NCBI GenBank assembly: GCA_031550925.1
Contig: JAVBOE010000017.1
Location: forward strand, 21,384 to 85,383
Reading direction: 5' to 3'
Source of the DNA: Bacteroidales bacterium
Lineage (GTDB): Bacteria; Bacteroidota; Bacteroidia; Bacteroidales; UBA932
Length of the DNA: 64,000 nt
Position 1 is the stretch's first letter. The number at the start of each line of letters is the position of its first letter. A model generated the notes under the pieces. That model was not told the DNA's origin. It worked only from the letters and a program-made list of their open reading frames with translations, and did not search any database. Positions 1 through 16,728 of this stretch are shown here, piece by piece. Made by a program: the position numbers and the translations under genes.

Positions 1-3000
1 CTTTTCTCCATGCTCACTTTTATGCGAGCATACCACTCTTCTACAGGTCCTTTATAAATATAGTTCTTGATTAAGGTGTTATAGAAATATTTATTATCTG
101 GCGTATTAAATTCTTTGCAAAGCAAATCGTATTCTTTGCGTATGTATGCTGTTATGTTTTTTGTACAAGAACGAAGGTCGTTGCCAAAGTCTTCAACCTT
201 TATTCTTGGTAGTATTTTTGTGGCAATTACTCCGCATTTTAAGTAGAGGGGTTGAGCCTTTGATAGTATCATCCCGTTTCCGTAAAATAGTATCGGCGTA
301 ACTTCCAGCTTCAGCTCTTCTGCTAGATAAAATGCGCCTTTATGATATCGTTGTATCTTCCCATCGTATGAGCGTGTACCTTCTGGAAATATTGCGATTG
401 AGTAGCCCTCGTTAATCTTTTTGCGCATCCGGTCGAGGTAGCTTTCATACCCTTCTCCTATATAAAAATAACCAACAAATCGGATTATTAATCCGAAAAC
501 CGGTGAGTTATGAACCCATTTGTTGGTTACCATTAATATTCTAGGACTTAATGATAGCAGGCGAAGTATATCAGTTAATGATTGATGGTTTGCAACTATT
601 ATGGATGGAACTTTAAATGTTTCGTTGGTCGTATTAATTGTATTCTTTTTTATAAAGAAGCAAGTCCATGAAATAAAACGGCAACAATACATTATAAGAT
701 AGCACATCCATAGCTTTTTTCGCTGAGTCTTTATTGGTGTAAATAAGAGTGTTATAAGAAAAGCGTGGAAAGTAAGGCACCCTACAAGAAATATTGTAAA
801 TGCATATATTGTTTGCAGTATGCCCATTACAGTGTATGGCTGTCTTCCTTTTGCTGCCGGATTGGCAATAAAGAAGTTAAAAATTACAGGCTCTAAAGTA
901 TATGCTACTAATACTACTGCAACCATTCCCAGTATTGACATGTATGATATTGAGTGTAGTGCCGGATGTTTAGCCAGTATCATTGCTCCCATTCCAACTA
1001 TAATTGTAAAGGCAGAGAAAAATATAGCGGTTTTGTGAGAGTTTAGAACTGCTTTACCTGTTCGGTATTTGTTCTGCAAACCGTCCATGATGAATATGCT
1101 GAAATCGTCGCCAATACCAAAAATGAACGTTGATAGAATAATGCTGATAATGTTGAATTGTATGCCGAATAACCCCATTATACCAATAATAATTATCCAG
1201 CTTATTATCATTGGCAAGAAGCTGATTAATGTTAACTCGATACGGCCGTATGAAATAAGAAGCGCGAAAAAGATAAGGAATGAGGAGATGTAAAGAACCA
1301 AATAAAAGTCATCGTTAACAACCGATACCCATTTGGATGTAAAGTAGGCACGGTCGAATATTACTACGTCATCATGTCCTTCAAATGCTTTATATACCTG
1401 CTCTTTATTGTTGTCGTTCAGCTTCACTATGCTTATAAGCATGGTTAGTCCGTCAGCTTCTCCATACCAATCATTTAACCTTTTACCGAAAAAGCTGTTG
1501 CCTTTGTTCAGGTCTGCTATTTCGAAAGAAGAATCTATCCAAGTGTAGAAATCGTTGAAAGCAGTGGCTCGAAAACCAAGTTTACTACTTTCTGTTTGTA
1601 TGGCTGCTTTTACAAAATCCTTTCTATCTTTAGTCCAGAAGCTGTTCCATTTTTGTATGTGCTTTTGCTGTTCTTCTTTGGTAATAAAAAAACGTTCGGC
1701 AGAGGCGTATTCAACAATCAGGCTGTCTTCTTTTAGAGCAGAGAGTTTCTTATTAGCTGCACGATAATTTTTTGTTGCTTCATCTAAATCATTTCCAACA
1801 GAAACGAACATAACATTCTTTTTGTTATCATTGTTGAATAGCTGATTTAGCTTTTGTTCAGTTTGTTTTAGATGCTTAGGTTCATAGCTAAGGTTTGTCA
1901 TGTCGCTATCAAAACCCACATACTTTGACGTGAAAAAACAGATGACGGTAATGACTATAATACCTCCGACTAACCATTTGTTTTTTTCAAAATGATATGC
2001 GTTAAAGCGCTCAATGGCGCGTAGCACTTTGCCTTGCTTCTGATGAGCTTGTCCGCTTAAAAAATGCGGTAAATATATTAAGCAGAATAAGGTTGTGCCA
2101 ATCAGGGCTAATGCGGCAAACAGTCCGATATTTTGTAGTAGGGCGGAGTTTGTAAATAGCAAACCCAGAAAAGCACCTATTGTTGTAAAACTGCCGACTG
2201 TTAAGGGATAGGCTATTTCTTTAACCAGCTGCTGTGGAGATTTTACATGATTTTGGTGCGCTATCATGTGAATAGAGTAGCTGAGTGCAATGCCCAGCAC
2301 AACGGCGCCTGCACCAACGGCAATGGCAGAAACGCTTCCTTGAATCAACGAAATAAAGCAAAGTGAAAATAAAGCACCAAATAAAACCGGAGTAATAATC
2401 AGAACTATGTCAATCTTACGTTTGAATACAAGCGACATAAAAACAACAATAACCAATAGCGATGCAATAACCGTAAGCATGGTATCGGTTTTAACTTGCC
2501 GGGCGTTATATACCGCAACAGATGGGCCTCCGAAGTATTCTATATCCAGGTTTAAGTTATTATTTTCAAGCAACTCTATTTCTTTTTCTAATGCGGTAAT
2601 CAGCACATCATTTTTTGCTGTGTTGCCCGTGCTATACATAGGTGTGATAAACATTAAAAGAGTGCTGCCATCTTCAGAAAAAATATAGCCATCGTTATAC
2701 TGATAGGTAGATTCAATTTGAAAATCCTGTAAGCCTTTTAAGGTAGATCCCGCAATGCCCAAGGGGTCGCGCATGATATACTCTTTCATTACCATACCGC
2801 TTGGAGATATAAGATTAGCGTAATTTCTACGCATTATATCCTCAATCCGGTTGTTAGATAGTAGCGAGTCTATATATTGATAATCATTGTCCGATAAGAA
2901 AAGCGGAAGGTTGTCATAAATAAAATCGCTTACCTGAGACCTTGTATCGTTACCTACTTTGAGCAGAATATCTTCGATGTATTCGTCAACCTGTTGTTGT

Positions 3001-3287
3001 AACGTTTCATTAAGCTGTTCTGCTGCCGCGATTAGGCTGTCTGTTTCTACTCCGTAATCTTTAGTAGAAAACATAACAATAATCTTATCCTTAATCTTAA
3101 GGTTATCGAATACTTTGGATATATTTTTTGTGTCTTTTGTTTTTGGGAAAAAATGGGTAATATTCTCGTCTAACTTTATTTGAAATGCAGCGTATGCCAT
3201 GCCTGTAGTAAAAATAATGAGCGACAGGTATAGCAACACTTTGCGGCGTTGAAAAAAATTATATATGCTGACAAAAAAAGACCCCAT
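1..3287 (-). CDS. MMPL/RND-type exporter fused to a PlsC-like lysophospholipid acyltransferase domain (3'-partial, continues past window start)
   Basis: Uninterrupted minus-strand frame from ATG at 3287-3285 to base 1 (at least 1095 codons). It is absent from the supplied ORF track because it has no in-window stop. My translation starts MGSFFVSIYNFFQRRKVLLYLSLIIF and has two multi-helix membrane bundles (e.g. IFGIGDDFSIFIMDG). It then shows acyltransferase motifs VANHQSLTDI (HX4D) and IFPEGTRS. Track ORFs 820-2688 (+) are antisense shadows of it. Confidence 0.85.
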   Translation of the reverse strand, partial: MGSFFVSIYNFFQRRKVLLYLSLIIFTTGMAYAAFQIKLDENITHFFPKTKDTKNISKVFDNLKIKDKIIVMFSTKDYGVETDSLIAAAEQLNETLQQQVDEYIEDILLKVGNDTRSQVSDFIYDNLPLFLSDNDYQYIDSLLSNNRIEDIMRRNYANLISPSGMVMKEYIMRDPLGIAGSTLKGLQDFQIESTYQYNDGYIFSEDGSTLLMFITPMYSTGNTAKNDVLITALEKEIELLENNNLNLDIEYFGGPSVAVYNARQVKTDTMLTVIASLLVIVVFMSLVFKRKIDIVLIITPVLFGALFSLCFISLIQGSVSAIAVGAGAVVLGIALSYSIHMIAHQNHVKSPQQLVKEIAYPLTVGSFTTIGAFLGLLFTNSALLQNIGLFAALALIGTTLFCLIYLPHFLSGQAHQKQGKVLRAIERFNAYHFEKNKWLVGGIIVITVICFFTSKYVGFDSDMTNLSYEPKHLKQTEQKLNQLFNNDNKKNVMFVSVGNDLDEATKNYRAANKKLSALKEDSLIVEYASAERFFITKEEQQKHIQKWNSFWTKDRKDFVKAAIQTESSKLGFRATAFNDFYTWIDSSFEIADLNKGNSFFGKRLNDWYGEADGLTMLISIVKLNDNNKEQVYKAFEGHDDVVIFDRAYFTSKWVSVVNDDFYLVLYISSFLIFFALLISYGRIELTLISFLPMIISWIIIIGIMGLFGIQFNIISIILSTFIFGIGDDFSIFIMDGLQNKYRTGKAVLNSHKTAIFFSAFTIIVGMGAMILAKHPALHSISYMSILGMVAVVLVAYTLEPVIFNFFIANPAAKGRQPYTVMGILQTIYAFTIFLVGCLTFHAFLITLLFTPIKTQRKKLWMCYLIMYCCRFISWTCFFIKKNTINTTNETFKVPSIIVANHQSLTDILRLLSLSPRILMVTNKWVHNSPVFGLIIRFVGYFYIGEGYESYLDRMRKKINEGYSIAIFPEGTRSYDGKIQRYHKGAFYLAEELKLEVTPILFYGNGMILSKAQPLYLKCGVIATKILPRIKVEDFGNDLRSCTKNITAYIRKEYDLLCKEFNTPDNKYFYNTLIKNYIYKGPVEEWYARIKVSMEK

Positions 3288-3295
3288 TGTAATAA

Positions 3296-4483
3296 TTAGT
3301 CGGCTATGTTTTGCGAACGTTTTCTAAAAGCTGTAAGTAATCCAAATGTAAGTAATCCTATTGTAATGCTACATATTGCTGCAAAAATAAAGCTGCCTAC
3401 AATATATTGCGTAAGGACATTCCATGCGCTCTCTAAAGATAAATCCGTAAATGCTAAACTTACAGGTTGACCTAAAGCCAAGCATCCGGTAACGTAGCTG
3501 CCATATAGCAAAAACGGTATCATTGGCGGTATGCTTATGTTTGAGGCAACCAGAGCTATCACTTTATTCAGTCTCAAAAATTGAGCAAGTACTAATGCTA
3601 AAATCATTTGGTATCCCCAAACCGGAACGATACCCATAAATACTCCTAGCATTACAGACAGAGTGATGTGCCTATTAGAATCGGGAGAGTGGGTAATGTG
3701 ATTGTGTGTAAACTTCTTGATATTAGTCCATGTCAGCGCTTTAAAGAAACGCTTTGGATATGCCCAAAAGAACGCAATAAGAACCAAAACAGTATTTACA
3801 ACGCTGATACGAAAAAAATCTCGTAACGGACGAAAATGTGATACCCGTTCTCCTTCGGGCGGATAGTAAACCTTAACAGGAATATTCTTAACAGGAATAC
3901 CTTTCCAGGCAGAGAAGACAATAATCTCCAGCTCAAACTCATACTTGGCTGTGTAGCCTTTCATACTACCTATTTTATGTAAAGGGTATAACCTATAGCC
4001 CGATTGTGTATCTGTTAGCTTTTTGCCTGTTTCAACATGATACCAAAAGTTTGAGAACTTATTGGCAAAAGTATTTTTACCGGGCATATTATTGGCAGTA
4101 AGATTTCTTGCTCCAATAAGTAGCGAATCGGGATGTTGTTCTATTTCCTCTGCAAATGTTGGTATATCAGATGGGTAGTGTTGTCCGTCAGAATCTATTG
4201 TGATTGCATAGCGGAAACCTTGTTCTTTTGCAGCAAGTAATCCGTTTTTTAGTGCACGTCCTTTACCTTTATTCTTTGGATGGGTAATTATCTGTATGCT
4301 CTCAAAGCCTTGTATAACATTGGCTGTATTGTCTGTAGAGCCATCATTTACCACTATAATATCCTGGCAGTATTCGCTTACACCTTCAATAACAGATGCT
4401 AAAGTTTTGTCGTTATTGTATGTAGGAATAATAACGACAATCCCAAGTTCTTTCAGCTTACTATGCCAAGAAATACTATTCAT
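3296..4483 (-). CDS. Family 2 glycosyltransferase with C-terminal multi-TM (DUF2062-like) domain
   Basis: GT-A motifs VVIIPTYNN, VVNDGSTDNT and TIDSDGQH. The C-terminal half is hydrophobic helices. The stop lies 9 nt from the downstream MMPL start. Confidence 0.8.
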   Translation of the reverse strand: MNSISWHSKLKELGIVVIIPTYNNDKTLASVIEGVSEYCQDIIVVNDGSTDNTANVIQGFESIQIITHPKNKGKGRALKNGLLAAKEQGFRYAITIDSDGQHYPSDIPTFAEEIEQHPDSLLIGARNLTANNMPGKNTFANKFSNFWYHVETGKKLTDTQSGYRLYPLHKIGSMKGYTAKYEFELEIIVFSAWKGIPVKNIPVKVYYPPEGERVSHFRPLRDFFRISVVNTVLVLIAFFWAYPKRFFKALTWTNIKKFTHNHITHSPDSNRHITLSVMLGVFMGIVPVWGYQMILALVLAQFLRLNKVIALVASNISIPPMIPFLLYGSYVTGCLALGQPVSLAFTDLSLESAWNVLTQYIVGSFIFAAICSITIGLLTFGLLTAFRKRSQNIAD

Positions 4484-4484
4484 C

Positions 4485-4853
4485 TCATCGCTTTTTTAGA
4501 ACGGCTTTCAGCTTAGTTACCGTCTGTTCTTTTTGCAGAATATCTGCCTGTACGTTTATGCTGCTATCTTCTCCTTCTGTCAGTACCATTATTATTTCAA
4601 TCATGTTGTCGGTCTTAGGGTTTATGACAGATAAAAACTTGCATGACTGCATTTGACTATAGCAGAGGTCGGTGTTTTTAATTTTCTCTACCCATTCCTT
4701 TACCATTTGCATTGTGCATACACCTGGAACAATGGGCTGTTCAGGAAAATGCCCTTTATATATTTCGTGATTCGCGTTTAGCTCCACTTTAATGGTGTAA
4801 TTTCCCGCGCTTTCTTGAATAGCAATAATTGTATAAAAATCTTTAAGCAACAT
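4485..4853 (-). CDS. Hotdog-fold 3-hydroxyacyl-ACP dehydratase (FabZ/FabA-like)
   Basis: HFPEQPIVPGV motif, 122 aa. There is a 1-nt gap to the downstream GT2 start. Confidence 0.75.
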   Translation of the reverse strand: MLLKDFYTIIAIQESAGNYTIKVELNANHEIYKGHFPEQPIVPGVCTMQMVKEWVEKIKNTDLCYSQMQSCKFLSVINPKTDNMIEIIMVLTEGEDSSINVQADILQKEQTVTKLKAVLKKR

Positions 4854-4867
4854 GCGATAAAATATTT

Positions 4868-5398
4868 CTATAATCTTTCAAGGTTAATAGATACACCAAT
4901 CCAAGAATGATTGATGGTCAGCTTTTCAAAGTCGTTATCTTGCGATTTATATTTCTGAAAAACACTCTTGCCAAAGTTTCTTCCTGATATTTTCTCGACA
5001 TATATTTCGTTTGATTTTGTCTTCCTAAACTTTTGATTGGCTAAAAACAGCTTCTTAAAATCGTTTTCAAACAGCATAATCACTCTTTTGTTTCGCAATG
5101 GTTCTACGCAGCTGTAAACTGTAAATTGTTCATCTTTCAATCCAAAATCAAATAGAGTAGGGCCAAAAAAAGTTGATGCTACAATACGAATTTCATCATT
5201 AGCTTTACGTTGTACAATAAGCATTCCGCTAAAGCTTTGCTTTTTAAAGCTAAGCTGCATATTGAACTTTTGCATCTCGCTATCAACGTTCAATAAGGGA
5301 GGATTGCCCGCTTCTACAGGCATTATCTTACTTGAACATGACGACAGAACAAGTAGCAAAAGAATACATAAACTAGCTAACCGAAAACTTTTCGTCAT
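4868..5398 (-). CDS. Small lipoprotein of unknown function (cluster-associated)
   Basis: The track ORF starts at 5455, but the internal ATG at 5398 gives MTKSFRLASLCILLLLVLSSC, a signal peptide plus lipobox Cys. No recognisable catalytic motif. Confidence 0.6.
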   Translation of the reverse strand: MTKSFRLASLCILLLLVLSSCSSKIMPVEAGNPPLLNVDSEMQKFNMQLSFKKQSFSGMLIVQRKANDEIRIVASTFFGPTLFDFGLKDEQFTVYSCVEPLRNKRVIMLFENDFKKLFLANQKFRKTKSNEIYVEKISGRNFGKSVFQKYKSQDNDFEKLTINHSWIGVSINLERL

Positions 5399-6005
5399 TT
5401 TGCAAAGAGTTGAATTTCTTATTGCTGAAAATGTAATCGGTGTAATCTGTTGCATTCTCTGATATTCTTAGCTTATCTACCGACATATCCTTTTTGTCAA
5501 AATAGATATGAAAATCTTTTATGTATTTCTGAACAACCTTACTTTTCGGCTTTACGATAACCAAAAAGTTTTTTGAATCTTCGAAGTACTCCAGCTCATA
5601 ATCTGATGACAGTAAAGAAATATCTCCGGACATACACGCTGTGAGCATTCCTTGCATCTCTTTCATTGTCTTGTTAGAGGCGAGATTTACAATAGATTTT
5701 TTACCATTATCTGTAATCTTCAGTTTGTCTCCATTTATCACAATTATGTAGTTCAAAGAGCCGGTATAATCAAGGCAAATCTTATTGCTATGCTTGTAGT
5801 AGAACTTACCTTTTAGCGTGATATCGCTATCAAAAACATCAAGATGTTTTATCTGAGTAAAGCTGCTTTCAATGCTTTTTACCGCTTTGGTTGATTGCCC
5901 TAATTTTTGTTCAAATGCTTGCTTATCTTCTATCTTCTTCATTTGAGCAGATAGCGATACGACAAATATTGTCAGAGTAAAAAGTGTGGCTATAATATAT
6001 TTCAT
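5373..6005 (-). CDS. LolA-like outer-membrane lipoprotein carrier family protein
   Basis: Signal peptide MKYIIATLFTLTIFVVSLSAQ. About 200 aa and beta-rich. Its position next to the exporter matches aryl-polyene clusters. The family call is from pattern and context only. Confidence 0.5.
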   Translation of the reverse strand: MKYIIATLFTLTIFVVSLSAQMKKIEDKQAFEQKLGQSTKAVKSIESSFTQIKHLDVFDSDITLKGKFYYKHSNKICLDYTGSLNYIIVINGDKLKITDNGKKSIVNLASNKTMKEMQGMLTACMSGDISLLSSDYELEYFEDSKNFLVIVKPKSKVVQKYIKDFHIYFDKKDMSVDKLRISENATDYTDYIFSNKKFNSLQNDEKFSVS

Positions 6006-6694
6006 GCTTCAAAATTCAAGTTAAATAATTCGTCAACTCTAACAAATTTATATCCTTTGTTGCTAATTAATTTGATAACACGCTCTAATGTGTCATCACT
6101 GGTTTTCAGGTCATCATGCAGTAAAATTACAGATCCGAAAGACAGCTTTTTTTCTACTCGTTTTAATACCTTACTGCTACTTTTGCAGGTATCTAAAGTG
6201 CGAATATTCCAGCCTATCGTGATGTACCTATGCTTCTTTACCATTCGCGCAATGGTTGGATTTGTTACACCAAAAGGAGGACGAAATAGCTGCGTTTTTT
6301 CTCCCGTAATATCTTCTATCTTTTTAGAGCATTCCGATGCTTCACTTGCCATTCTTTTAGCTGAATATAAGGGAAATTTACCGGAATGGTTGTGGCTGTG
6401 ATTTCCCAATAAATGCCCTTCGTTTTTAATTCGTTGTATTATATTTTCGTTTCCTGCAATTTTGCTGCCAATGCAAAAGAAACAGGCTTTGATATTGTAC
6501 TTTTTTAAAATATCTAACACTTTAGGCGTTTGTGTAGAGTCTGGACCATCATCAAATGTCAGTGCTACAACTTTTCCTGCTTTAGGATTGCGGCATAAGG
6601 CATTAAGATACACTCGCGATCTTATACTGTATGATGCATAAAAAAAGAAAAGCATCACAACAATTAGTATGCCAACCACAATCAACGTACTCAT
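6002..6694 (-). CDS. NodB-type polysaccharide deacetylase with N-terminal TM anchor
   Basis: Motifs LTFDDGPD and HSHNH. ATGA start/stop overlaps occur at both ends (6002-6005 and 6691-6694). Confidence 0.8.
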   Translation of the reverse strand: MSTLIVVGILIVVMLFFFYASYSIRSRVYLNALCRNPKAGKVVALTFDDGPDSTQTPKVLDILKKYNIKACFFCIGSKIAGNENIIQRIKNEGHLLGNHSHNHSGKFPLYSAKRMASEASECSKKIEDITGEKTQLFRPPFGVTNPTIARMVKKHRYITIGWNIRTLDTCKSSSKVLKRVEKKLSFGSVILLHDDLKTSDDTLERVIKLISNKGYKFVRVDELFNLNFEA

Positions 6695-7638
6695 TTCCCT
6701 AGCAGCATTATTGAATGATTTTCGCCATTGTAATGGTTATAAATCAATATATTTTGTATCTCGGCATTAGTTATTAAGCTATCAACCGCTATGTAAAAAG
6801 CATGTGATGAAGCCGTATGATATTCGCCACAAGCATCTTTAAATGTATGATGGGTTGCTGAATTAGATATACTATTTACTACATCTGTATATATTTTGTC
6901 TTGCTCTATATTTCCGTTTTCCCCTGTGATTATTGCATCAATATTGCTAGTCTCTATGCCTACACTTTTCAATAGGGCTTGAATATATGATGATATTTCA
7001 GCAGAATTCATTTTGCCTGATAATGCCTTAACTCCCTTAAGTTCTATGTATGTATTTGAAGGTTTATCGCTTAGAATAAAAAAGTGTGCTCCCTCTCCTA
7101 ATGTCGTGTTTTTAAGGCATCCCAACTTTTCTATGATTGCCTGAGCGGTATGGGTTACTTCATCAATAGCCCCGACAAGAACATTTTTATCGCCTTCGTT
7201 AATGCGCATCATTGCATCTATTAACGCACTCTCAAAGCTTATTCCACGATGAACAAACGTGTTGTTATATGCATGGTTGTTGGTAAGCAATGCAATCTGC
7301 GAACCAATTACATTGAATGTTGATTGAGTAAATGCTGTGGGATTCAACAATCGTTCGTCATTTTCGATAATCAAATTCAAAAACTTTTCGGTATCCTCAA
7401 GGCATCCTAAACCCGTTGCTGTTATTATAGAATCAACAGGTTTATTGTTGTTCTTTTGTAAACAAAGCAAGCCACATGCAACTCCCATTTTTACAATATG
7501 GCTCATGCGCCGACGCAGGTTGGCATTGGTAATAACGTCTTTATAGTCCGGCTCTATGGCATGTAGAATACCGCCTTCACCTATCATACCATCAGGACTA
7601 ATTGCTGTTGCTGCGTTTATGTAAACTCTTTTTTTCAT
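6691..7638 (-). CDS. Beta-ketoacyl synthase-like protein lacking the catalytic triad (chain-length-factor-like)
   Basis: Thiolase-fold-like, 315 aa. Where KS enzymes have HGTGT and GH(T/S)xGAAG, it has ITGENGN and GEYHTASS. No TACSS-type active-site Cys context. Confidence 0.65.
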   Translation of the reverse strand: MKKRVYINAATAISPDGMIGEGGILHAIEPDYKDVITNANLRRRMSHIVKMGVACGLLCLQKNNNKPVDSIITATGLGCLEDTEKFLNLIIENDERLLNPTAFTQSTFNVIGSQIALLTNNHAYNNTFVHRGISFESALIDAMMRINEGDKNVLVGAIDEVTHTAQAIIEKLGCLKNTTLGEGAHFFILSDKPSNTYIELKGVKALSGKMNSAEISSYIQALLKSVGIETSNIDAIITGENGNIEQDKIYTDVVNSISNSATHHTFKDACGEYHTASSHAFYIAVDSLITNAEIQNILIYNHYNGENHSIMLLGK

Positions 7639-7642
7639 GCCG

Positions 7643-8830
7643 TCAGCTTATTGAAGAAAAGAGTAATGACGAATCATTCCCCCCGAATCCGAATGAGTTA
7701 GACAAAACATGCTCTATCGGTAGGAGCTGTCTATATCCCAAAACAGGACTAAGTCTTGTACCTTCTATCGGATTTTTAAAGTTAAGATTAGGATATATAA
7801 TACCCATTGCCACAGAAAGAACCGATAGCACAGCCTCTATGCCCTCTGCCGCTCCCAATGTGTGACCAATAAAGGCTTTTACAGAGCTGAAAAGAGGAAT
7901 ACTATCTCCGAATAGCCTTTCAATTGCTCTTGCTTCAGACAAATCATTATTTGGTGTTCCTGTTCCATGAACGTTTATATATCCTACTTCCGAAGGTTTT
8001 ATGCCTGCCATTTCTATGCTTTGGCGCATACACTCGTATGGCCCGTCTCCATCCGGTGAAGTTGCCGTTTGGTGGTATGCATCGTTGGCATTGGCATATC
8101 CTGTGAGCAGGCAATATGGATCTGAGTATAGAGAATAATCATTTTGCAAAACAATATAGCCTGCGCCTTCTCCGATGTTGAGCCCTGCTCGTGAAGCATC
8201 AAATGGCCTGCAATGCTCACTATCCAATATCATCAATGAGTTGAAACCGTTGAGTGTAAACTTACAAAGAGAATCTACACCACCTACAATTACAGCATCC
8301 AGCAGGCCGTTTTTTATCATTCGGGCACCCATAATAATTGCATTTGCGGCAGAAGAACAAGCAGTACTTATGGTTGTAACAAACTCTGTAATGCCTAAAT
8401 ATTCGGCAATTTGCTGTGTGCTATATCCACAATCGTGTTGAGCGAATAGCTGTACATCTGCTTGCTGAGGGTTATCCTTAAAACCAGCGTAAGCCTGTTC
8501 GCTCAAATCCATTCCGCCTACTGAGGTTGAAGAGATAAATCCGGTACGAAATGCTTTTACATTATTAATTCCGGAAGTTTGCAGTGCCTCTTTTGCTGCA
8601 ACCATACCAAGCAATGTAGTGCGACTATATGTTTTTGCTGCAGGCAAGCCGAGCATTTCTTTTAGCAGGCTATTGCTCCGCTTTACTTCGCTAACAGTTG
8701 CATTAAGGGTTGTAGGGAATAGCGTAACAGGTCCCATACCATGCTTAACGGATGACAGAGCATCCAAATGCTCACGAACATTTGTGCCTATACCCGATAT
8801 TGCTCCTATGCCTGTTACGTATATTTTCAT
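7643..8830 (-). CDS. Beta-ketoacyl-ACP synthase (FabF/FabB-type KS)
   Basis: STACSSAANAI (Cys), NVHGTGTPNND, IGHTLGAAEG, FGFGGND. Confidence 0.9.
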   Translation of the reverse strand: MKIYVTGIGAISGIGTNVREHLDALSSVKHGMGPVTLFPTTLNATVSEVKRSNSLLKEMLGLPAAKTYSRTTLLGMVAAKEALQTSGINNVKAFRTGFISSTSVGGMDLSEQAYAGFKDNPQQADVQLFAQHDCGYSTQQIAEYLGITEFVTTISTACSSAANAIIMGARMIKNGLLDAVIVGGVDSLCKFTLNGFNSLMILDSEHCRPFDASRAGLNIGEGAGYIVLQNDYSLYSDPYCLLTGYANANDAYHQTATSPDGDGPYECMRQSIEMAGIKPSEVGYINVHGTGTPNNDLSEARAIERLFGDSIPLFSSVKAFIGHTLGAAEGIEAVLSVLSVAMGIIYPNLNFKNPIEGTRLSPVLGYRQLLPIEHVLSNSFGFGGNDSSLLFSSIS

Positions 8831-9084
8831 TACTTCCGGTTTGCTTGTATGTAGTCTGCCAATGTGCGGATTGAGTGAAATATCTCTTTCCCTTCCGATG
8901 GGTTCTGAATTTTTATTCCATAGCTACGCTCAAGAATTAGCATAATCTCTAGGGCATCAATTGAATCAAGTCCAAGCCCTTCGCCAAAAAGAGGAGCATC
9001 AGCATCAATATCTGCAGGTGTAATTTCTTCGAGGTTTAGCTCTTGGATAATCTGTTGTTTTAATTTTTCAATTAGCTCTTCCAT
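8830..9084 (-). CDS. Acyl carrier protein
   Basis: 84 aa with GLDSIDALE phosphopantetheine-Ser motif. 1-nt stop/start overlap with the downstream KS. Confidence 0.9.
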   Translation of the reverse strand: MEELIEKLKQQIIQELNLEEITPADIDADAPLFGEGLGLDSIDALEIMLILERSYGIKIQNPSEGKEIFHSIRTLADYIQANRK

Positions 9085-9086
9085 GG

Positions 9087-10817
9087 TTATTTTGTTTTTA
9101 TTAGTTCAAATTCTGCTTTGTAATTTCCATCTAAAAATTCGCACCAACCACATATACAAAATGATAAACCGCTGTCTTGCATGGCCAGCTGTACATATCT
9201 TTTTATGGTCTCGGGAGAGTAATTTTTTTCAATAAAAAAGGTGTTCTCTCCTTGTATTTTATGATGTATGCAAATTTCTCCTGCCACCACATTTGGCAAC
9301 GTATATACAAATACAGCAGGGCTAGCTGCCACATCTCCTCCATCGTCTATCAGCTGCTGATGCTTCTTATCTGTATCTAGCGATGCTGCTGAGTTTGATA
9401 GTATAATGCCAATTTTTGTAGGCTCTGTTTTTTCTTCATCTTTCAGCAAATAAGCAGCAGCAATATAGCCCAACTTTGACAAGTCGTCCATCTTGTAAAA
9501 CTTCATATTGCTTTCGTTGAATTTTTTGTATGCCTCACGGATAAAGGAAGAGAAGTCTGGTGCTTCTGATTTGAAAACAACCTTATTGTTAATAGTAACT
9601 ATATTATTTTCAACGATACAACGCTTTACAGAATTGCAACTTATTTTTTGTTTACTTGTATTTTTTTGTATTTTATTTTCTATGGATAAAACAATAGCAG
9701 CATTACACCCCCCGAATCCGGAGCCTGTTTTTATACACGATTTTGCAGTCGTTTTATGATGTTTGTTGCTAATCGCTAAAGGTTGAGATACGCCGTTATT
9801 TTCGTATCCAAGTGTACCAAAGACAACTTCATTTCTCAGCTGTTGTATGCTTAAAATTGATTCAACCACTCCCGATGCTCCCAATGTATGTCCTAAGTAT
9901 GGTTTGAGGCTGTTTACCATTGTGTTTTGTAGCTGTGCCCAATGAACGGCTTTCGCTTCCATTTCGTCGTTAAAAACAGTTGCTGTGCCGTGCAGGTTGA
10001 TGTATCCTATATCATCTTTAGTAAGCCCGGCATCATCTAACGCACCTTGTATGGCATAGAATAAACCATCTCCGGTGCGTGAAGGACCTGATATGTGGTT
10101 AGCATCGTTACTGATTGCTCCGCCGCATAGGGTTGCTGCATTGGGGCAATAAGCTGTGGTTAACAGTATGCTGGCACAGGCTTCTCCAAGGTTTAACCCG
10201 TCACGTTTTTCGTCATATGGGCGACAAATGTTCGGACTGACAGATTTAAAAGATACAAAACCGCTTGTGATAAAATGTGAAAGCACATCAACACCAACAA
10301 CTACAACATTCTGATAAATGTTGGCTTGTAGCAAACGCTTAGCGATGATTAATGCTGATATACCCGAAATGCAAGCGTTTGATACAACCGATACTCTATC
10401 ACCTAAATTGTAGTATGCCGAAATTTTATCTGCAATGCTCCACAAAAAAGCCGATTCGCTGATGTTTTCTGTTGCATTTTGTAGCATATCTATATTGCCC
10501 TTTGTTGTAGATATAATAAGGGCTGTATCAGATGAACTTAAGTCTGCTTTGTGCTGTTGCAACAGCTCATTTACAGATAAAATAATCAACTGCTCTGCTT
10601 TAGTGTATGCACTAAGGTTATATTTGTTTACTTGTTGGTTTAAAATTTCAGAACATATTTTTGCAGCCTGAATGGGTTGGTTTGAAATAGTACCACTTTT
10701 ATCCAGTTTAACGCCACTCTTGTATGCAAGAATAGCATCAAAATTCTGTTGGGTAGTAAATCCCAACGAGCTGATGATATTATCTGCTGCAATGTATATG
10801 TTTAGATTATTCCCCAT
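9087..10817 (-). CDS. Beta-ketoacyl-ACP synthase with about 190-aa C-terminal KS-N-terminal-like half domain
   Basis: SNACISGISAL (Cys), NLHGTATVFND, LGHTLGASG, GFGGCNAA. An extra domain follows (KMDDLSKLGYIAAAYLL, ILSNSAASLDTD, SPAVFVYTLPNVVAGEICI). The track start at 10829 is TTG, and the first ATG is at 10817. Confidence 0.8.
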   Translation of the reverse strand: MGNNLNIYIAADNIISSLGFTTQQNFDAILAYKSGVKLDKSGTISNQPIQAAKICSEILNQQVNKYNLSAYTKAEQLIILSVNELLQQHKADLSSSDTALIISTTKGNIDMLQNATENISESAFLWSIADKISAYYNLGDRVSVVSNACISGISALIIAKRLLQANIYQNVVVVGVDVLSHFITSGFVSFKSVSPNICRPYDEKRDGLNLGEACASILLTTAYCPNAATLCGGAISNDANHISGPSRTGDGLFYAIQGALDDAGLTKDDIGYINLHGTATVFNDEMEAKAVHWAQLQNTMVNSLKPYLGHTLGASGVVESILSIQQLRNEVVFGTLGYENNGVSQPLAISNKHHKTTAKSCIKTGSGFGGCNAAIVLSIENKIQKNTSKQKISCNSVKRCIVENNIVTINNKVVFKSEAPDFSSFIREAYKKFNESNMKFYKMDDLSKLGYIAAAYLLKDEEKTEPTKIGIILSNSAASLDTDKKHQQLIDDGGDVAASPAVFVYTLPNVVAGEICIHHKIQGENTFFIEKNYSPETIKRYVQLAMQDSGLSFCICGWCEFLDGNYKAEFELIKTK

Positions 10818-11248
10818 TTTTTCTTCCAATCCAAGTAGAATTCAGGATTAACCAGTTCAAGCTCACGATTTAGGTTTAGAAAAACCTGTATTGAACTTCC
10901 TGTTGCTACAACCGAATGGTCATCGGCTTTGTATATGGTATATTCGAAAAGAATTTTTGCAGCATCGGTGTTGATGTATCGGGTTTCGATAATTGCTTCG
11001 TCTCCTACGCTAAGCGGTTTTTTATACTGGCAATCTAAGCTGACAATAGGAGTCATAAAGCCATTTCTGTGCACGTCCATATAGCTTATGCCGTAGTGGT
11101 TGCCAAATGATTCGCGACCATCTTCGAAGTAACGTATATACTGACCATGCCATACAATCTGCATGAAATCTACCTCACTAAAACGAACGCGAATTGTTGT
11201 AGTATCGGTTAATGCTGCAATATTTGGTGTAATTTTTCTTTTCGACAT
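10802..11248 (-). CDS. 4HBT/YbgC-type hotdog acyl thioesterase
   Basis: RVRFSEVDFMQIVWHGQY motif, 148 aa. Confidence 0.75.
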   Translation of the reverse strand: MSKRKITPNIAALTDTTTIRVRFSEVDFMQIVWHGQYIRYFEDGRESFGNHYGISYMDVHRNGFMTPIVSLDCQYKKPLSVGDEAIIETRYINTDAAKILFEYTIYKADDHSVVATGSSIQVFLNLNRELELVNPEFYLDWKKKWGII

Positions 11249-11252
11249 TTAT

Positions 11253-11687
11253 TTACTCTTCTTTTTTCAAAAAAATCTTCATTCTGCATTCAGCCATTAG
11301 TTCGTCTGCAGCACTTGTTTTTGCTGAGATTAATGTAATATCTCCTAACTCTTGCATCACCTGAATCTCGGTATATAATTCACTACCGATTTGTGGTAAA
11401 TTATGTAGCTTAAACTTGTCAACAGAACCAATAAAGCCAAGGGAGACAGGCTCTCCTTTTTGCGTAGATATATAGCCCATGCGTGCCGCAGCCGATTGTG
11501 CAATGTGCTCAATTAATCCGACTTCTGCAAAATGATCTGATTGGCAGAAAATATTATCGGCTTGAATTGTTAAGCCCGAATATGAAGAATTACCATCAAT
11601 TCCGTAGAATTTATCAACCATGACAATGGGTGCACGTTGCGGTATTAGCTGCAGTATTTCTTCTCCTTGTAAAATAGCTTCTCGCAT
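11253..11687 (-). CDS. Hotdog-fold dehydratase (ApeI/ApeP-like)
   Basis: 144 aa with the hotdog pattern LIEHIAQSAA. Located between the thioesterase and the methyltransferase. Confidence 0.6.
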   Translation of the reverse strand: MREAILQGEEILQLIPQRAPIVMVDKFYGIDGNSSYSGLTIQADNIFCQSDHFAEVGLIEHIAQSAAARMGYISTQKGEPVSLGFIGSVDKFKLHNLPQIGSELYTEIQVMQELGDITLISAKTSAADELMAECRMKIFLKKEE

Positions 11688-11689
11688 GT

Positions 11690-12793
11690 TTAATCTTTTT
11701 TCTTACACTGAACAATGCTATGCCCCATTCCTAGGTTATCGTGAATTACTTCAACAGCAAGTCCGGCATCGCTTATGCAGCGTATCATATCTTCAGAATA
11801 ATACATTTTACTATTGCCGTTTGCCATTGCTGTAAAGTATATACTGGTTTGCGCCAAGCAGTATGATGCTGTTTCAAATCTTTGCCTATCCCAAAAAGTT
11901 TCCATGATGTAAAGACGAGCATTGCTGCTCATAGAAACAGCTGCACGCTGAAGTATGCTAACCACTTCTTCTTCCGAGAAGCAGTCGAGGAACTGGCTCA
12001 TCCATATGGCGTCATAACCTTTTGGGAAAGGAACGTTCTTATCCAATAAATTTACGCCATGACCATGAATGCGTTCCGCTCCGGTTTTACCTGCTGTGAA
12101 TTGTTTCATTAGCTCCAGCTGCTGAGGTAAATCCATGATGGTAACGTTAACTGTCGGATTATACTCAACACACTTAAGCGCCCAACGACCGGTGTTACCG
12201 CCAACATCAAGTAGGGTAGAAGGGTTATTGCCGAATACTATCTTAAGCGCTTCTTCAAAAGAACAATCAGAATAGTAGTGGTCAAAACCGAACCAGCTCT
12301 TTTGCACATGCTCTGGTAGGCTTGATAAACCTTCATATATTGTAGGCCAATCGCCAAAAACTTTTAGCCCTTCCGGCTTACCATTTAGCAACGCTTCTTC
12401 AAGATTGAATAGCCCGAGGTAGTTTACATCATGGTTAAAATCCAGGTTTACACGAGCCATTTTATCGTTTAGCAAAAACCATCCTGTTTTTGACAAAACG
12501 AAACGATTATCGTTAAGTAAAACCGTTTTTATTGTAAGCGATGATTCCAGAAGAACTTGGGTTGCGTATGGAGATAGCTTAGTGTGCTCGATGATTTCAT
12601 CTATGGTTAACCCGTCACGATTCTCGGCAAGTAAATCAAGAATGCCGAATTTTATCATTAGGCGGGATACTTGAAACACTACCGGAGCAAAAGCAATTTC
12701 TTGCGCCAACCGTTGTGCCTCTAGGGCTGTATGAGGTTCTTTTGAATATCGTTTTTTAAGTTCGTCAGATATATTCATGGTAATCGGTATCAT
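11690..12793 (-). CDS. Class I SAM-dependent methyltransferase with N-terminal winged-helix/dimerisation-like domain
   Basis: SAM motif I LLDVGGNTGRWAL. 367 aa, O-methyltransferase family-2-like layout. Confidence 0.75.
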   Translation of the reverse strand: MIPITMNISDELKKRYSKEPHTALEAQRLAQEIAFAPVVFQVSRLMIKFGILDLLAENRDGLTIDEIIEHTKLSPYATQVLLESSLTIKTVLLNDNRFVLSKTGWFLLNDKMARVNLDFNHDVNYLGLFNLEEALLNGKPEGLKVFGDWPTIYEGLSSLPEHVQKSWFGFDHYYSDCSFEEALKIVFGNNPSTLLDVGGNTGRWALKCVEYNPTVNVTIMDLPQQLELMKQFTAGKTGAERIHGHGVNLLDKNVPFPKGYDAIWMSQFLDCFSEEEVVSILQRAAVSMSSNARLYIMETFWDRQRFETASYCLAQTSIYFTAMANGNSKMYYSEDMIRCISDAGLAVEVIHDNLGMGHSIVQCKKKD

Positions 12794-12794
12794 G

Positions 12795-13679
12795 TTACCC
12801 CCAAAATTTATAGTAGTTAAACCATTGTTCGGGATATTCTTTTAGTATGCTTTCAAGCGTTTGCACGTATTGTTTTAGCTGCTCTTGTTCAGGTTTATCT
12901 CCAACTTTTCTAGCTGTTGGTTGTGCTATGCAAAAATGAAAGCGATATGTTTTATGCGGCTCCCTCATTGCAAAGTAAAAAACTACCGGGACTTTTAGTC
13001 GTGATGCCAGCAAAAACGGACCACCCGGAAATTTTGCTTCTTTTCCCATAAAAAAACAGGTCAGCAGCTTATCTTCTTTCACATAACGGTCTCCCTGAAA
13101 ACAAACGTACTCTTTGTTGTCTAACGCTGTTTTAATAGCAAAAACGTGCTCTAAATTATCGTTGTTAACCGCAACTATTTTATAATCGGCAAAAGCCTTA
13201 TTTTTTTCTAACACTTCTTTAATGCGCCTGTGCTCGGCATCGTAAAGCACTATGTTTATTTTTTTTCCATAACCCTCAAAGAACGGAGTCCCTATTTCCC
13301 AGCTGCCTACATGCGCCCCTATTATTATGGCTCCTTTATCATCGTTCAGTATTTCAAGAAATTTTTCGTAATTCTCAAACTTAAACTTGAACTTCTTTGT
13401 AAGCCCGCAACCAATGGCAACCTTATCTATTAGTATCTGTCCGAAACGATAGTAGTTCTTAAATAAAAAGCCTATGGATTTAAATACGTTTCGTTTTAGG
13501 ATTTTTCGGGAGTAAAACCACGAACTGGCTGTAGCCCTTGGTGCAAAAGGTATAAAATGGATAACAATAAAGGCAAGGAATGTATATGCAACATTAACTC
13601 CAAGATGCTTTATCAAATAGATAAAGAACAGGTATCCGAATTTTCCACCTCGTGTTTTGCCTTCCCACTCTGTAGCCAT
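12795..13679 (-). CDS. LpxL/HtrB-like lysophospholipid (lipid A-type) acyltransferase
   Basis: N-terminal TM helix and IIGAHVGSWE (HX4E) motif. Confidence 0.7.
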   Translation of the reverse strand: MATEWEGKTRGGKFGYLFFIYLIKHLGVNVAYTFLAFIVIHFIPFAPRATASSWFYSRKILKRNVFKSIGFLFKNYYRFGQILIDKVAIGCGLTKKFKFKFENYEKFLEILNDDKGAIIIGAHVGSWEIGTPFFEGYGKKINIVLYDAEHRRIKEVLEKNKAFADYKIVAVNNDNLEHVFAIKTALDNKEYVCFQGDRYVKEDKLLTCFFMGKEAKFPGGPFLLASRLKVPVVFYFAMREPHKTYRFHFCIAQPTARKVGDKPEQEQLKQYVQTLESILKEYPEQWFNYYKFWG

Positions 13680-13930
13680 TATTCCTCAACATTCATACGC
13701 GAAATAACGAAGTTGTAAAAATCCTGAACTGTTTGTACTCCAATAAAATCTTTACTGGTTACAGAAAATCCAAAATTTTGCTCAACTAAAACAACCATAT
13801 CTACCATATCTAAGCTGTCTAGCCGCAATACTTTCATCAAATTGGCATCCGGTTGAATTAATTCAATATCCGTTTCAAATTCGTCTGCTAAAGTTGCTCT
13901 AATCTTTTCGGTAATTTCTACAATTCTCAT
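13679..13930 (-). CDS. Acyl carrier protein
   Basis: 83 aa with RLDSLDMVDMV motif. 1-nt overlap with the downstream gene. Confidence 0.9.
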   Translation of the reverse strand: MRIVEITEKIRATLADEFETDIELIQPDANLMKVLRLDSLDMVDMVVLVEQNFGFSVTSKDFIGVQTVQDFYNFVISRMNVEE

Positions 13931-13960
13931 GGTTTCTGCTTAATATTGGTAATATTAAGT

Positions 13961-15184
13961 TTACTCTTTAAATTTTTTAATAATTAAGGTTGAGTTGGTT
14001 CCTCCAAAGCCAAATGAGTTGGATAGGAAGGTGTCAAACTCAATATCTACACGCTTTGAAGGAATATTGAGCAAGGAAGAAGTCTCGTCAGATTCTTCGA
14101 AGTTGATATTAGGAGCAACAAAATTATTCTGCATCATTAGGGTTGAGTAAACAATTTCGCTTGCACCTGCCATCCACATTTCGTGTCCGGTCATTGATTT
14201 AGTTGACGTAACCAGCGGACGGTATTCTCCAAAAACATCAATAATAGCTTGTGCTTCATTTAAATCGCCGATAGGCGTTGACGTTGCGTGAGCGTTGATG
14301 TATTTTATATCAGAAAGTTTTACGCCCGAAGATTCAATAGCCATCTGCAGCGATTTTTTAGAACCGTTGATGTTAGGCACAGACATGTGATCTCCGTTTG
14401 AAGAAAATCCGTAACCCATAATTTCGGCAAGAATAGGTGCTCCGCGTTTCTTCGCTGATTCGTAGCTCTCGATTACCAGACTTGCAGCACCTCCGCTCGG
14501 AACTAATCCATCGCGGTTTTTGTCGAATGGACGTGATGCTTTGTGAGGCTCATCTATGCGGGTAGAGAAGGTTCCTAACCCATCGAAGCTGCTAACCCCA
14601 AAAGGATTTACTTCTTGTGCGCCACCGCAAAGTATGCAATTTTGAAATCCATTCCCAATTAAAATGTAGGCCATACCAATAGAGTGAGAACCACTGGCGC
14701 ATGCCCCGGATATGGTAAAGCTGATACCTTTGAGCTTAAAAATAATGGAGAGGTTCATCGTTACAGTCGAGTTTAGCGCCTGAAAAACGGAACCGGCCCC
14801 TACAAGTGCTGTATTTCTCTTTGTCCTAACAGTATCACACGCTGTAATAATGGGAACAGCACTGCTGTCATTTCCATATAAAATTCCTACATCATTAGCC
14901 TCTAAAAACGCGCTGTCGATGCCTGCATTCCGAAATGCTTCTGCTGTTGCCATGTAGGCATATTCACCTTGTTCGGCAAGGTAGTTACGTTGACGCCTGT
15001 CAAGCAAAGGTTTTAAATCCGGACGCTCAATAATGCCTGTTAAGGGAGAAATAAACCCCAGCTCTTTACGTTCGGGGTCAATGCCAATGCCTGATTTTCC
15101 ATGATATAGCGAATCCTTTACCTCATTGAGATTTTTGCCTATACATGAGTATATCCCCATACCCGTTATTACAACTCTTTTCAT
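13961..15184 (-). CDS. Beta-ketoacyl-ACP synthase (KS)
   Basis: SGACASGSHSIG (Cys), NAHATSTPIGD, MTGHEMWMAGA, FGFGGTN. Confidence 0.9.
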   Translation of the reverse strand: MKRVVITGMGIYSCIGKNLNEVKDSLYHGKSGIGIDPERKELGFISPLTGIIERPDLKPLLDRRQRNYLAEQGEYAYMATAEAFRNAGIDSAFLEANDVGILYGNDSSAVPIITACDTVRTKRNTALVGAGSVFQALNSTVTMNLSIIFKLKGISFTISGACASGSHSIGMAYILIGNGFQNCILCGGAQEVNPFGVSSFDGLGTFSTRIDEPHKASRPFDKNRDGLVPSGGAASLVIESYESAKKRGAPILAEIMGYGFSSNGDHMSVPNINGSKKSLQMAIESSGVKLSDIKYINAHATSTPIGDLNEAQAIIDVFGEYRPLVTSTKSMTGHEMWMAGASEIVYSTLMMQNNFVAPNINFEESDETSSLLNIPSKRVDIEFDTFLSNSFGFGGTNSTLIIKKFKE

Positions 15185-15189
15185 TTTCG

Positions 15190-16728
15190 CTATAGCTCGA
15201 CTTCCGACAATTTGTGATTCTTCAAATACTCAACAAGTTTTTCTATATCCTTATACATTGGCTTATCTTCAACAAACACAGGGAAGATATCTCGTACTTC
15301 GGCATATATCTTTGCTGTTTTTGGAGATAGCTTTGATTGAATTTTCAGGTAATCTATGGCTTGTGCTATTGCCATAAATTGAATTGACAATACCTGAAAT
15401 GAATTCTCTATAACTGTTTTCGCAATTAGCGCCGAGTTAGTGCCCATGCTTACGATATCTTGATTGTCGTTGTTATTCGGGATGCTATGCACATACATCG
15501 GGTTCGACAACGTTTGGCACTCGGCGGTGGTTGATGTTGCCGTAAACTGTGCAGCTTGTAAACCGTAGTTAAGACCAAGCGTACCAAGATTTCCGAAAGG
15601 TGGAAGAATTTCGTTAATCTTATCATGGAAGATATAGTTAAGCTGTCGCTCGGCAAGCATGGTTAGCTTTGTAATCGCAATCTTCAGCTTATCCATTTCG
15701 TATGAAACATAATCGCCATGAAAGTTTCCGCCATGGTATATATTTTGCGAATCGGGGTCAACAATCGGATTATCACATGCCGAGTTGATTTCGTTAACCA
15801 AAACCTTTTCCGCATTTTTCAGCTCATCATATATAGGTCCTAGCACTTGTGGCACGCAACGAAGAGAATAGTATGGCTGTACTTTATGTGCAAAAATACG
15901 CTCTTCGTGCTTATGGCTATATAGCTCAATCTCTCGTTTACGAACACATTGACTGTCTTCTATCAGCTTAGTCATAATTTCGGCAATCTTGCTTTGTCCT
16001 TTGTGTCGTTTGGTATCGTTAAGCTCTTTCGCCATAAAGTCATCGTATGATGAAACGACTTCATTCACCATAACCGATGCTATAATTGACCATTGTAGCA
16101 GCTTACGGGCATATATCAGATTAACAAGCCCGATGCCTGTCATAACAGAAGTACCATTGGTTACTGATAATCCTTCGCGAATACGCATTGCAAAAGGTTT
16201 CAATCCTAGCTGTTTCATTACATCGGAACAGTTTTGAAGCTGACCATTGTAGTAAACCTCTCCTTCGCCAATAAATGTTAACGCAAGGTGTGCAAGCTGT
16301 ACCAAATCACCGCTAGCTCCAACGCTTCCATGCTCGGGAACGAATGGATATATCTCTTTATTGATAAAGTTTACAATAAGGTTAACCAGTTCAGGGTGTA
16401 CTCCCGATTTTCCTTGTAGAAAAGTATAAAGACGTGCGAGCATTGCAGCCCTCACATAAATGGGCTCTAGTGGTTTTCCCGCTCCAACCGAGTGGCTGCG
16501 AATTATGTTATACTGTAGCTCTGTTAGGGCTTTGTCGTCTATTCTGTATTGAGCCATTGGCCCAAAGCCTGTATTAATACCGTAGATAACTTTATTAGCA
16601 GAGAAATCTTCCAAAAAGTCGAAGCTTCTTTGCACTTCGGCCATGGTTTCTTTCAGGATAGCTATCGGTTGCTTATCAAATACTATATTTTTTATCGACT
16701 CTAGGTCTATCAACGCGTTTTGTTCCAT
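15190..16728 (-). CDS. MIO-dependent aromatic amino acid ammonia-lyase (HAL/TAL family; probable tyrosine ammonia-lyase of the cluster)
   Basis: GSVGASGDLVQLAHL carries the Ala-Ser-Gly MIO triad, with NTGFGPMAQ and HGGNFHG also present. It is the first gene of the polyene operon, as in flexirubin clusters. Confidence 0.85.
   Translation of the reverse strand: MEQNALIDLESIKNIVFDKQPIAILKETMAEVQRSFDFLEDFSANKVIYGINTGFGPMAQYRIDDKALTELQYNIIRSHSVGAGKPLEPIYVRAAMLARLYTFLQGKSGVHPELVNLIVNFINKEIYPFVPEHGSVGASGDLVQLAHLALTFIGEGEVYYNGQLQNCSDVMKQLGLKPFAMRIREGLSVTNGTSVMTGIGLVNLIYARKLLQWSIIASVMVNEVVSSYDDFMAKELNDTKRHKGQSKIAEIMTKLIEDSQCVRKREIELYSHKHEERIFAHKVQPYYSLRCVPQVLGPIYDELKNAEKVLVNEINSACDNPIVDPDSQNIYHGGNFHGDYVSYEMDKLKIAITKLTMLAERQLNYIFHDKINEILPPFGNLGTLGLNYGLQAAQFTATSTTAECQTLSNPMYVHSIPNNNDNQDIVSMGTNSALIAKTVIENSFQVLSIQFMAIAQAIDYLKIQSKLSPKTAKIYAEVRDIFPVFVEDKPMYKDIEKLVEYLKNHKLSEVEL

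Follow-up and report, generated by a model that had tools for sequence, protein, structure and literature searches.

A flexirubin-type aryl-polyene operon of a Bacteroidales bacterium, without dialkylresorcinol genes and with its FlxB ketoreductase gene in a second cassette

Flexirubin-type aryl-polyene (APE) clusters belong to the most common biosynthetic clusters of Bacteroidota. According to the literature, the cloud of flexirubin gene clusters covers five classes of the phylum, and the proteins LolA2 and LolB2 are found in flexirubin-like loci only. The closest described systems are the Chitinophaga pinensis cluster, which consists of flxA-flxY and darAB (Schoner et al. 2014, PMC3992019), the Flavobacterium johnsoniae cluster (Fjoh_1075-1110) and the ape clusters of Proteobacteria. 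In the APE lipids of Xenorhabdus doucetiae, ApeJ esterifies the polyene to GalNAc-phosphate-glycerol, and a second conjugated chain is built on ApeF and attached by ApeD (Grammbitter et al., bioRxiv 10.1101/2020.12.19.423268). Related 'arylpolyene' biosynthetic gene clusters have been reported as persistent in human-gut Bacteroides; those described by genome mining include pBGC-12 of B. xylanisolvens, which is syntenic with the C. pinensis cluster, and no product was characterised there (PMC12940132). Here we describe a related locus of a Bacteroidales bacterium. It opens a stretch of 64,000 nucleotides (the window; C73:21384-85383) from an assembly of 2.51 Mb in 130 contigs that is an estimated 94.6% complete, and a first-pass annotation made from the sequence alone had assigned it to the aryl-polyene/flexirubin type.

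We read this locus, with a probability of about 0.7, as the main operon of a flexirubin-type APE lipid pathway that resembles a type II polyketide synthase (PKS), in which FlxB would act in trans, DarAB would be missing and the anchor would be a sugar-glycerolipid. The assignment to the aryl-polyene/flexirubin family is borne out by equivalogs, by collinearity and by phylogeny. Five flexirubin-specific NCBIfam equivalogs, namely FlxA, FlxJ, LolA2, LolB2 and FlxY, score above their cut-offs. The gene order (A, C, D, E, [J], F, H, I+L, M, N, O, P, Q, R, S, T, U, W, Y) is almost gene-for-gene collinear with that of flxA-flxY in Table S4 of Schoner et al. 2014 (PMC3992019), and with the complete Flavobacterium-like flexirubin cluster that we used for comparison (G123). 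In a maximum-likelihood tree of 31 ketosynthases (KS), KS1 of the operon falls in the FlxC clade (support 100/100), which is sister to FabB and ApeR, while KS2 falls in the FlxI clade (100/100) and KS3 in the FlxN clade (98/97). The genome's own FabF clusters with E. coli FabF (97/94), apart from the KS of the operon. A grouping with housekeeping enzymes was what the first-pass annotation had named as able to overturn its assignment; no operon KS groups with housekeeping FabF, and the tree excludes the view that these proteins are themselves FabF or FabB. Other core features of APE clusters are present as well: KS of the ApeO/ApeR type apart from FabF, a triad-less partner of the chain-length-factor type, two acyl carrier proteins (ACP), a hotdog pair and an MMPL/LolA/LolB set. 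The cluster is of a known kind, and its local variations are the absence of dar genes, the placement of a ketoreductase (KR) and a flavoenzyme in a second cassette, and a fusion of FlxI with FlxL. The genes of the operon are given below in the order of transcription. Identities to Ape proteins refer to the E. coli CFT073 ape cluster, located in RefSeq and compared by BLAST; the PDB entries 6qsp_B and 6qsr_A are chains of X. doucetiae APE complexes.

15190..16728, minus strand: FlxA, tyrosine ammonia-lyase (TAL; MIO enzyme), first operon gene; NF053541 FlxA_rubin_TAL 877 bits against a cut-off of 700; PF00221.
13961..15184, minus strand: KS1, FlxC-type ketosynthase (FabB/ApeR-like); N- and C-terminal KS domains of Pfam; Cys-His-His intact.
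13679..13930, minus strand: ACP1 (FlxD; ApeF-like); PF00550; 39% identity to ApeF.
12795..13679, minus strand: FlxE, LpxL-type lipid acyltransferase; PF03279; 27% identity to the acyltransferase part of ApeJ and 41% to the Flavobacterium-like FlxE.
11690..12793, minus strand: FlxJ, S-adenosylmethionine (SAM) methyltransferase, ApeB homologue with a predicted role in ring methylation; NF053543 632 bits against a cut-off of 560; 49% identity to ApeB.
11253..11687, minus strand: DH1, FabZ-like hotdog dehydratase (FlxF); weak FabZ matches (NCBIfam, PDB) and no Pfam match; 37% identity to the Flavobacterium-like FlxF.
10802..11248, minus strand: FlxH, 4HBT thioesterase (ApeK-like); PF13279, PF03061; 29% identity to ApeK.
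9087..10829, minus strand: KS2, FlxI ketosynthase fused to a FlxL half-KS domain (residues ~386-580), 580 aa.
8830..9084, minus strand: ACP2 (FlxM; ApeE-like), putative carrier of the aryl-polyene chain; PF00550; NF006617 93 bits; 51% identity to ApeE.
7643..8830, minus strand: KS3, FlxN ketosynthase (ApeO-like) with an intact triad; 34% identity to ApeO; PDB 6qsp_A, 8.5e-53.
6691..7638, minus strand: FlxO, 315-aa KS-like protein without the triad (chain-length-factor type, ApeC-like); PF13723; sole PDB match 6qsp_B, the partner chain of the APE KS complex, the similarity being weak (E 0.0045; 23% identity to ApeC).
6002..6694, minus strand: FlxP, NodB-family polysaccharide deacetylase; PF01522; in the position of flxP; 41% identity to the Flavobacterium-like copy.
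5373..6005, minus strand: LolA2, predicted periplasmic carrier for the pigment lipid; NF053544 209 bits against a cut-off of 125.
4868..5455 (start probably 5398), minus strand: LolB2, predicted outer-membrane lipoprotein receptor; NF053540 64.8 bits against a cut-off of 60; lipobox LSSC.
4485..4853, minus strand: DH2, ApeI-like hotdog dehydratase (FlxS); best PDB match 6qsr_A; weak Pfam matches, PF07977 at 26.6 bits being above its cut-off of 23 and PF22818 (ApeI-like) at 26.3 bits below its cut-off of 28.5.
3296..4483, minus strand: FlxT, GT2 glycosyltransferase with a DUF2062 membrane domain; PF00535, PF09835; 31% identity to the GT2 part of ApeJ.
1..3287 and a further 558 nt off the window, minus strand: FlxU, MMPL/RND exporter with PlsC acyltransferase and SAM methyltransferase; PF03176; full protein of 1281 aa taken from locus L003.
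Off the window, minus strand: FlxW, C45/AAT-family acyltransferase, 554 aa; NF040521 243 bits.
2.3-3.6 kb beyond base 1, minus strand: FlxY, PaaK-type CoA ligase, 431 aa; NF053551 722 bits against a cut-off of 520.

The listing of open reading frames (ORFs) places 17 of them on the minus strand; they fill the window from 16728 to base 1, and the edge cuts the last one before its stop codon. Intergenic spacers measure 1-30 nt. Direct reading confirmed four overlaps of stop and start codons: ATGA at 6005-6002 and 6694-6691, and TAATG, with a 1-nt overlap, at 8832-8828 and 13681-13677 (shared bases 8830 and 13679). Two larger overlaps depend in size on the choice of start codon, 16-28 nt between the thioesterase (TE) and KS2 genes and 26-83 nt between LolA2 and LolB2. 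Co-directionality, the four overlaps and the domain calls all agree with the first-pass annotation (Pfam and NCBIfam for the domains of all 17 genes). Once sequence past base 1 is counted, the full operon comprises 19-20 genes: FlxW follows FlxU on the same strand and shares 1 nt with it, FlxY is separated from FlxW by 90 nt, and the gene of a 196-aa secreted protein lies another 68 nt on. All 20 reading frames are open. Past the 196-aa gene the flank consists of convergent tsf/rpsB; upstream of FlxA it is a GH92 alpha-mannosidase gene (17155-19491, plus strand), divergent from the operon and parted from it by a 426-nt AT-rich spacer, the presumed site of both promoters. A scan of the operon end for promoters and terminators gave a number of sites not above that in shuffled sequence, with one weak hairpin at the FlxY stop. 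The 196-aa gene itself (minus strand, L003 1116-1706, about 3.7-4.3 kb beyond base 1) encodes a protein with no Pfam or NCBIfam match; it is kept after FlxY in a congener at 70% identity, and an Alistipes locus (L046) has a 31%-identical relative directly upstream of FlxA.

The first-pass annotation had reported no short-chain dehydrogenase/reductase (SDR), ligase or DarAB genes, and had confined this to the visible stretch. Within 1-16728 the statement is correct, and the caveat was apt: the ligase, FlxY, is encoded just off the window, the KR on another contig, and DarAB is truly absent. Sequence past base 1 therefore supplied the ligase; neither a KR nor darAB is present on the flanks of the operon.

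Residues expected of active enzymes are preserved along the operon. The catalytic Cys-His-His is present in KS1, KS2 and KS3, and none of the three motifs occurs in FlxO. FlxA has the ASG triad of MIO enzymes; its motif 1 is a HAL-like Ser-His, and its motif 2 carries Gln. The same pattern of motifs is seen in the biochemically proven TAL of C. pinensis, and an ordinary histidine ammonia-lyase (HAL) of the same genome, HutH (window 40370-41875, minus strand; 33% identity to FlxA), has Glu at motif 2 and served as an internal control. We therefore rejected the HAL-type Ser-His as an argument against TAL activity, since the proven TAL shares it and motif 2 separates FlxA from HutH. The composition of KS2 was resolved by comparison with the G123 cluster, where a separate 378-aa KS (FlxI) shares 42% identity with its N-terminal part and the adjoining 214-aa ORF (FlxL) 39% with its C-terminal part. 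A profile of the FlxL domain recovers that FlxL-like ORF at E 1e-62 and weakly matches the N-terminal half of FlxO, which makes FlxL a half-KS. A single FlxI-FlxL protein is encoded at 28 of 44 Bacteroidales loci.

A KR of the FlxB or ApeQ type, which flexirubin and APE clusters carry within the cluster, is missing from this one: no SDR is encoded in the 21-kb operon, between FlxA and the KS, or on either flank. The lack of an SDR noticed in the first-pass annotation thus stands for the operon, yet a true FlxB is encoded elsewhere in the genome, on contig C1, within a set of ten genes:

C1:16373-27014 (L084 6373-17014), minus strand: ten-gene cassette, co-directional, spacers 15-118 nt.

Its genes 1-5 encode a PlsC-type acyltransferase (460 aa), a FlxC-type KS that is 67% identical to KS1, an ACP, a 4HBT thioesterase and an MMPL protein with methyltransferase (1002 aa); genes 6-10 encode a small EamA/SMR-like protein, a CrtD/FlxV-like flavoenzyme, a LolA2-like protein, FlxB (C1:17267-17995) and a 271-aa SDR. 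This FlxB reaches 415 bits with NF053542 (cut-off 340), is 42% identical to ApeQ, and is the only KR of the ApeQ/FlxB type in a genome with three FabG-like proteins. The 271-aa SDR also closes the G123 cluster, where it follows FlxY; FlxB, FlxV and this SDR are absent from the main operon, and all three are thus housed in the cassette. Binning contamination was dismissed as a source of the cassette, because its GC content (0.396) agrees with that of the genome (0.401) and because it recurs in the assembly of a congener (G301). Both loci are found there in the same order at 62-96% protein identity, the genes of the main operon at 63-92%. The congener's operon also holds two stretches of extra sequence that have no counterpart in the window's genome: one of about 1 kb between KS3 and the KS-like gene (C43:13532-14564), and one of about 0.8 kb that parts C45 from FlxY (C43:2926-3716).

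Among 53 Bacteroidales loci, 46 have FlxB encoded between FlxA and FlxC and 7 lack it at that place, as here; it has the same position in 8 of 10 FlxB-bearing relatives. A genome of the same family (G308) has FlxB beside FlxA and, about 600 kb away from the main cluster, a shorter AT-KS-ACP-MMPL-FAD-LolA cassette. That cassette holds the only FlxC-type KS and ACP of the genome, an arrangement that suggests one pathway split in two. The C1 cassette may complete the pathway as its second half, or it may serve a separate lipid pathway.

The dialkylresorcinol genes were sought with references from the G123 cluster, whose DarB itself passes the DarB model (694 bits; cut-off 550). The model, NF053539, had no match in six frames of the window's genome or of two congeners, one of which is 99% complete. 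Neither DarA nor DarB of the G123 cluster had a match in the window's genome by blastp and tblastn; the DarA candidate has no NCBIfam model, so that its absence is a BLAST result alone. Complete clusters that include FlxV, C45, FlxY, DarA, DarB, a BtrH-like peptidase and ABC genes are present in one genome of the same family (G318) and one of the same order (G324):

G318 C3:33001-65000: full flexirubin cluster.
G324 C6:34001-68000: full flexirubin cluster.

Because these relatives carry darAB, the dar genes appear to have been lost in this lineage rather than never present. In an order-wide sample of 201 genomes FlxA exceeded its cut-off in 48 and DarB in 24; among the 48 with FlxA, DarB accompanied it in 21 and was lacking in 27. 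Bacteroides thetaiotaomicron, used as a control, matched neither FlxA nor FlxB. What had been noticed for the visible stretch thus extends to the genome and two congeners in our searches, and does not hold for the order. FlxA also occurs outside such clusters: in Tannerella forsythia and Tannerella metagenome-assembled genomes (L014, L016, L017, L018, L021) one or two genes for FlxY-type ligases come directly after it and the 10-kb flanks hold no genes for KS, ACP or export, and there FlxA and FlxY are a stand-alone tyrosine-to-coumaroyl-CoA pair.

By homology, the following pathway can be proposed. FlxA would convert tyrosine to 4-coumarate, which FlxY, encoded off the window, would activate to give a 4-coumaroyl starter. 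The chain would be extended on the ApeE-like ACP2 by two pairs of KS and half-KS, the fused FlxI-FlxL and FlxN with FlxO, with ketoreduction supplied in trans by the cassette FlxB, dehydration by the hotdog pair DH1/DH2 and ring methylation by FlxJ. FlxC and the ApeF-like ACP1 would form a second acyl-chain module. Attachment to the anchor may fall to FlxE, the C45 protein FlxW or the PlsC domain of FlxU as acyltransferases, together with the GT2 enzyme FlxT and the NodB protein FlxP; FlxU (MMPL), LolA2 and LolB2 would transfer the lipid to the outer membrane. Since DarA and DarB are absent from the genome, the polyene could not be esterified to a dialkylresorcinol (DAR), and the product is probably not a flexirubin proper. 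Most likely, by analogy with the proteobacterial APE lipids, the polyene is placed on a sugar-bearing glycerolipid anchor: the operon holds homologues for all the anchor functions described above for X. doucetiae, and in addition a NodB deacetylase and a C45 acyltransferase of the acyl-CoA:amine type. The first-pass annotation had taken the NodB deacetylase beside the GT2 gene as a hint of a de-N-acetylated aminosugar head group. The product may carry such a head group; the gene pair, however, is not specific to this lineage, flxP and flxT being canonical in C. pinensis and F. johnsoniae. We accordingly discarded the pair as a Bacteroidales novelty, as GT2, NodB, LolA and exporter genes are standard in every flexirubin cluster.

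Several observations weigh against the proposed pathway. Canonical clusters that make plain DAR esters also carry FlxP, FlxT, FlxE and FlxU, so these genes do not prove a glycolipid product. That FlxB serves the main operon follows only from its being the sole FlxB-type gene, and the genome encodes two other FabG-like SDRs. With its second copies of KS, ACP, TE, MMPL and LolA functions, the cassette may belong to a separate pathway. Lastly, with 130 contigs and a completeness of 94.6%, a small dar locus may have escaped assembly.

A rival view is that the two loci are independent, the main operon borrowing a housekeeping FabG and the C1 cassette making a different, non-aryl outer-membrane lipid. 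We regard this as unlikely. The cassette does own a KS, ACP, thioesterase, MMPL exporter, LolA-like carrier and PlsC-type acyltransferase, its KS is no recent duplicate of KS1 in the tree, three FabG-like SDRs are available, and the G308 genome keeps its cassette far from a main cluster in which FlxB stands beside FlxA. On the other hand, the cassette has no dehydratase, and its FlxB passes the flexirubin FlxB equivalog and is 59-74% identical to the FlxB proteins sited between FlxA and FlxC in the 46 other Bacteroidales loci; the G308 cassette, carrying the only FlxC-type KS and ACP there, points instead to one split pathway.

A classical flexirubin, that is, an aryl-polyene ester of a dialkylresorcinol, would be made if darA and darB lay in the unassembled 5% of the genome. 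The fragmented assembly would permit this, relatives of the same family and order have full clusters with darAB, and FlxW, the C45 protein proposed to join polyene and DAR, is retained. It is nevertheless very improbable, given that the DarB model was blank in the genome and both congeners, that darAB lie inside or beside the flx cluster in other genomes and both flanks are assembled here, and that DarB is missing from more than half of the FlxA-bearing genomes of the order (27/48). Equally little credence is due to the idea that the cluster is a silent or decaying remnant without a product in a strict gut anaerobe. Relative to the canonical cluster the main operon has indeed lost flxB, flxV, flxK, flxX and darAB; its 20 open reading frames, intact catalytic residues and translational coupling speak against decay, as do the conservation of the order of every gene in the congener at 63-92% identity and the retention of the lost reductase genes elsewhere in the genome.

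The preferred reading, an APE lipid operon served by FlxB in trans, can be carried further, if only tentatively. The genus might have re-wired flexirubin machinery into a two-locus, resorcinol-free system that makes an undescribed aryl-polyene glycolipid, in which FlxT would add an N-acetyl-hexosamine, FlxP deacetylate it and FlxW N-acylate the freed amine, with the cassette giving the ketoreductase, a flavin desaturase/reductase and the second acyl chain. If this were true, the clusters that lack DarB would have such a glycolipid as their product class; about half of the FlxA-bearing Bacteroidales genomes in our sample have a cluster of this sort, and human-gut Bacteroides has related ones. 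Products of Bacteroidales-type clusters had been called uncharacterised in the first-pass annotation. We found no paper characterising one in the literature that we searched. The clusters are not of one type, as some same-family relatives have complete clusters with darAB. The question of what these anaerobes make is sharpened by the frequency of FlxA without DarB, and by the persistence of the tailoring and export genes (NodB, GT2, C45, MMPL-acyltransferase, LolA2/LolB2) where the resorcinol genes are gone. That a ketoreductase can come from a second cassette is also a warning for genome mining, as a call made on the main locus alone looks incomplete. In other respects the operon is a recognisable member of a well-annotated family, and its assignment is useful bookkeeping rather than a surprise.

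Compared with the flexirubin clusters of C. pinensis and F. johnsoniae, the locus has the same families in nearly the same order, and the fusion of exporter, acyltransferase and methyltransferase in FlxU is common to the published C. pinensis table and this operon. It differs from them in having no darA or darB anywhere in the genome, no halogenase (flxK), flxG, phosphopantetheinyl transferase (flxX) or ABC transporter/BtrH genes, in having flxB and the flxV-like flavoenzyme moved to a second cassette on another contig, in the move of flxJ to just after flxE, and in the fusion of flxI with flxL (580 aa). The genus is set apart from most Bacteroidales loci too, by lacking flxB between flxA and flxC. 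In the proteobacterial ape cluster (E. coli CFT073, X. doucetiae), ApeH loads 4-hydroxybenzoate, whereas here the starter would come from the TAL and a PaaK-type ligase; the KR lies outside the operon, and a NodB deacetylase, a C45 acyltransferase and a second KS/half-KS pair are additional. ApeJ is split into two genes here, FlxT and FlxE matching its two halves, and ApeM and ApeD, both matched by FlxU, are fused. Common to the two systems are the logic of a type II PKS with an ApeO-like KS, an ApeC-like partner and two ACPs; an ApeI-like dehydratase, an ApeB-like methyltransferase, an ApeK-like thioesterase and an ApeR/FabB-like second KS; the functions of ApeJ (GT2 and lipid acyltransferase); and an export set of the MMPL/LolA/LolB kind.

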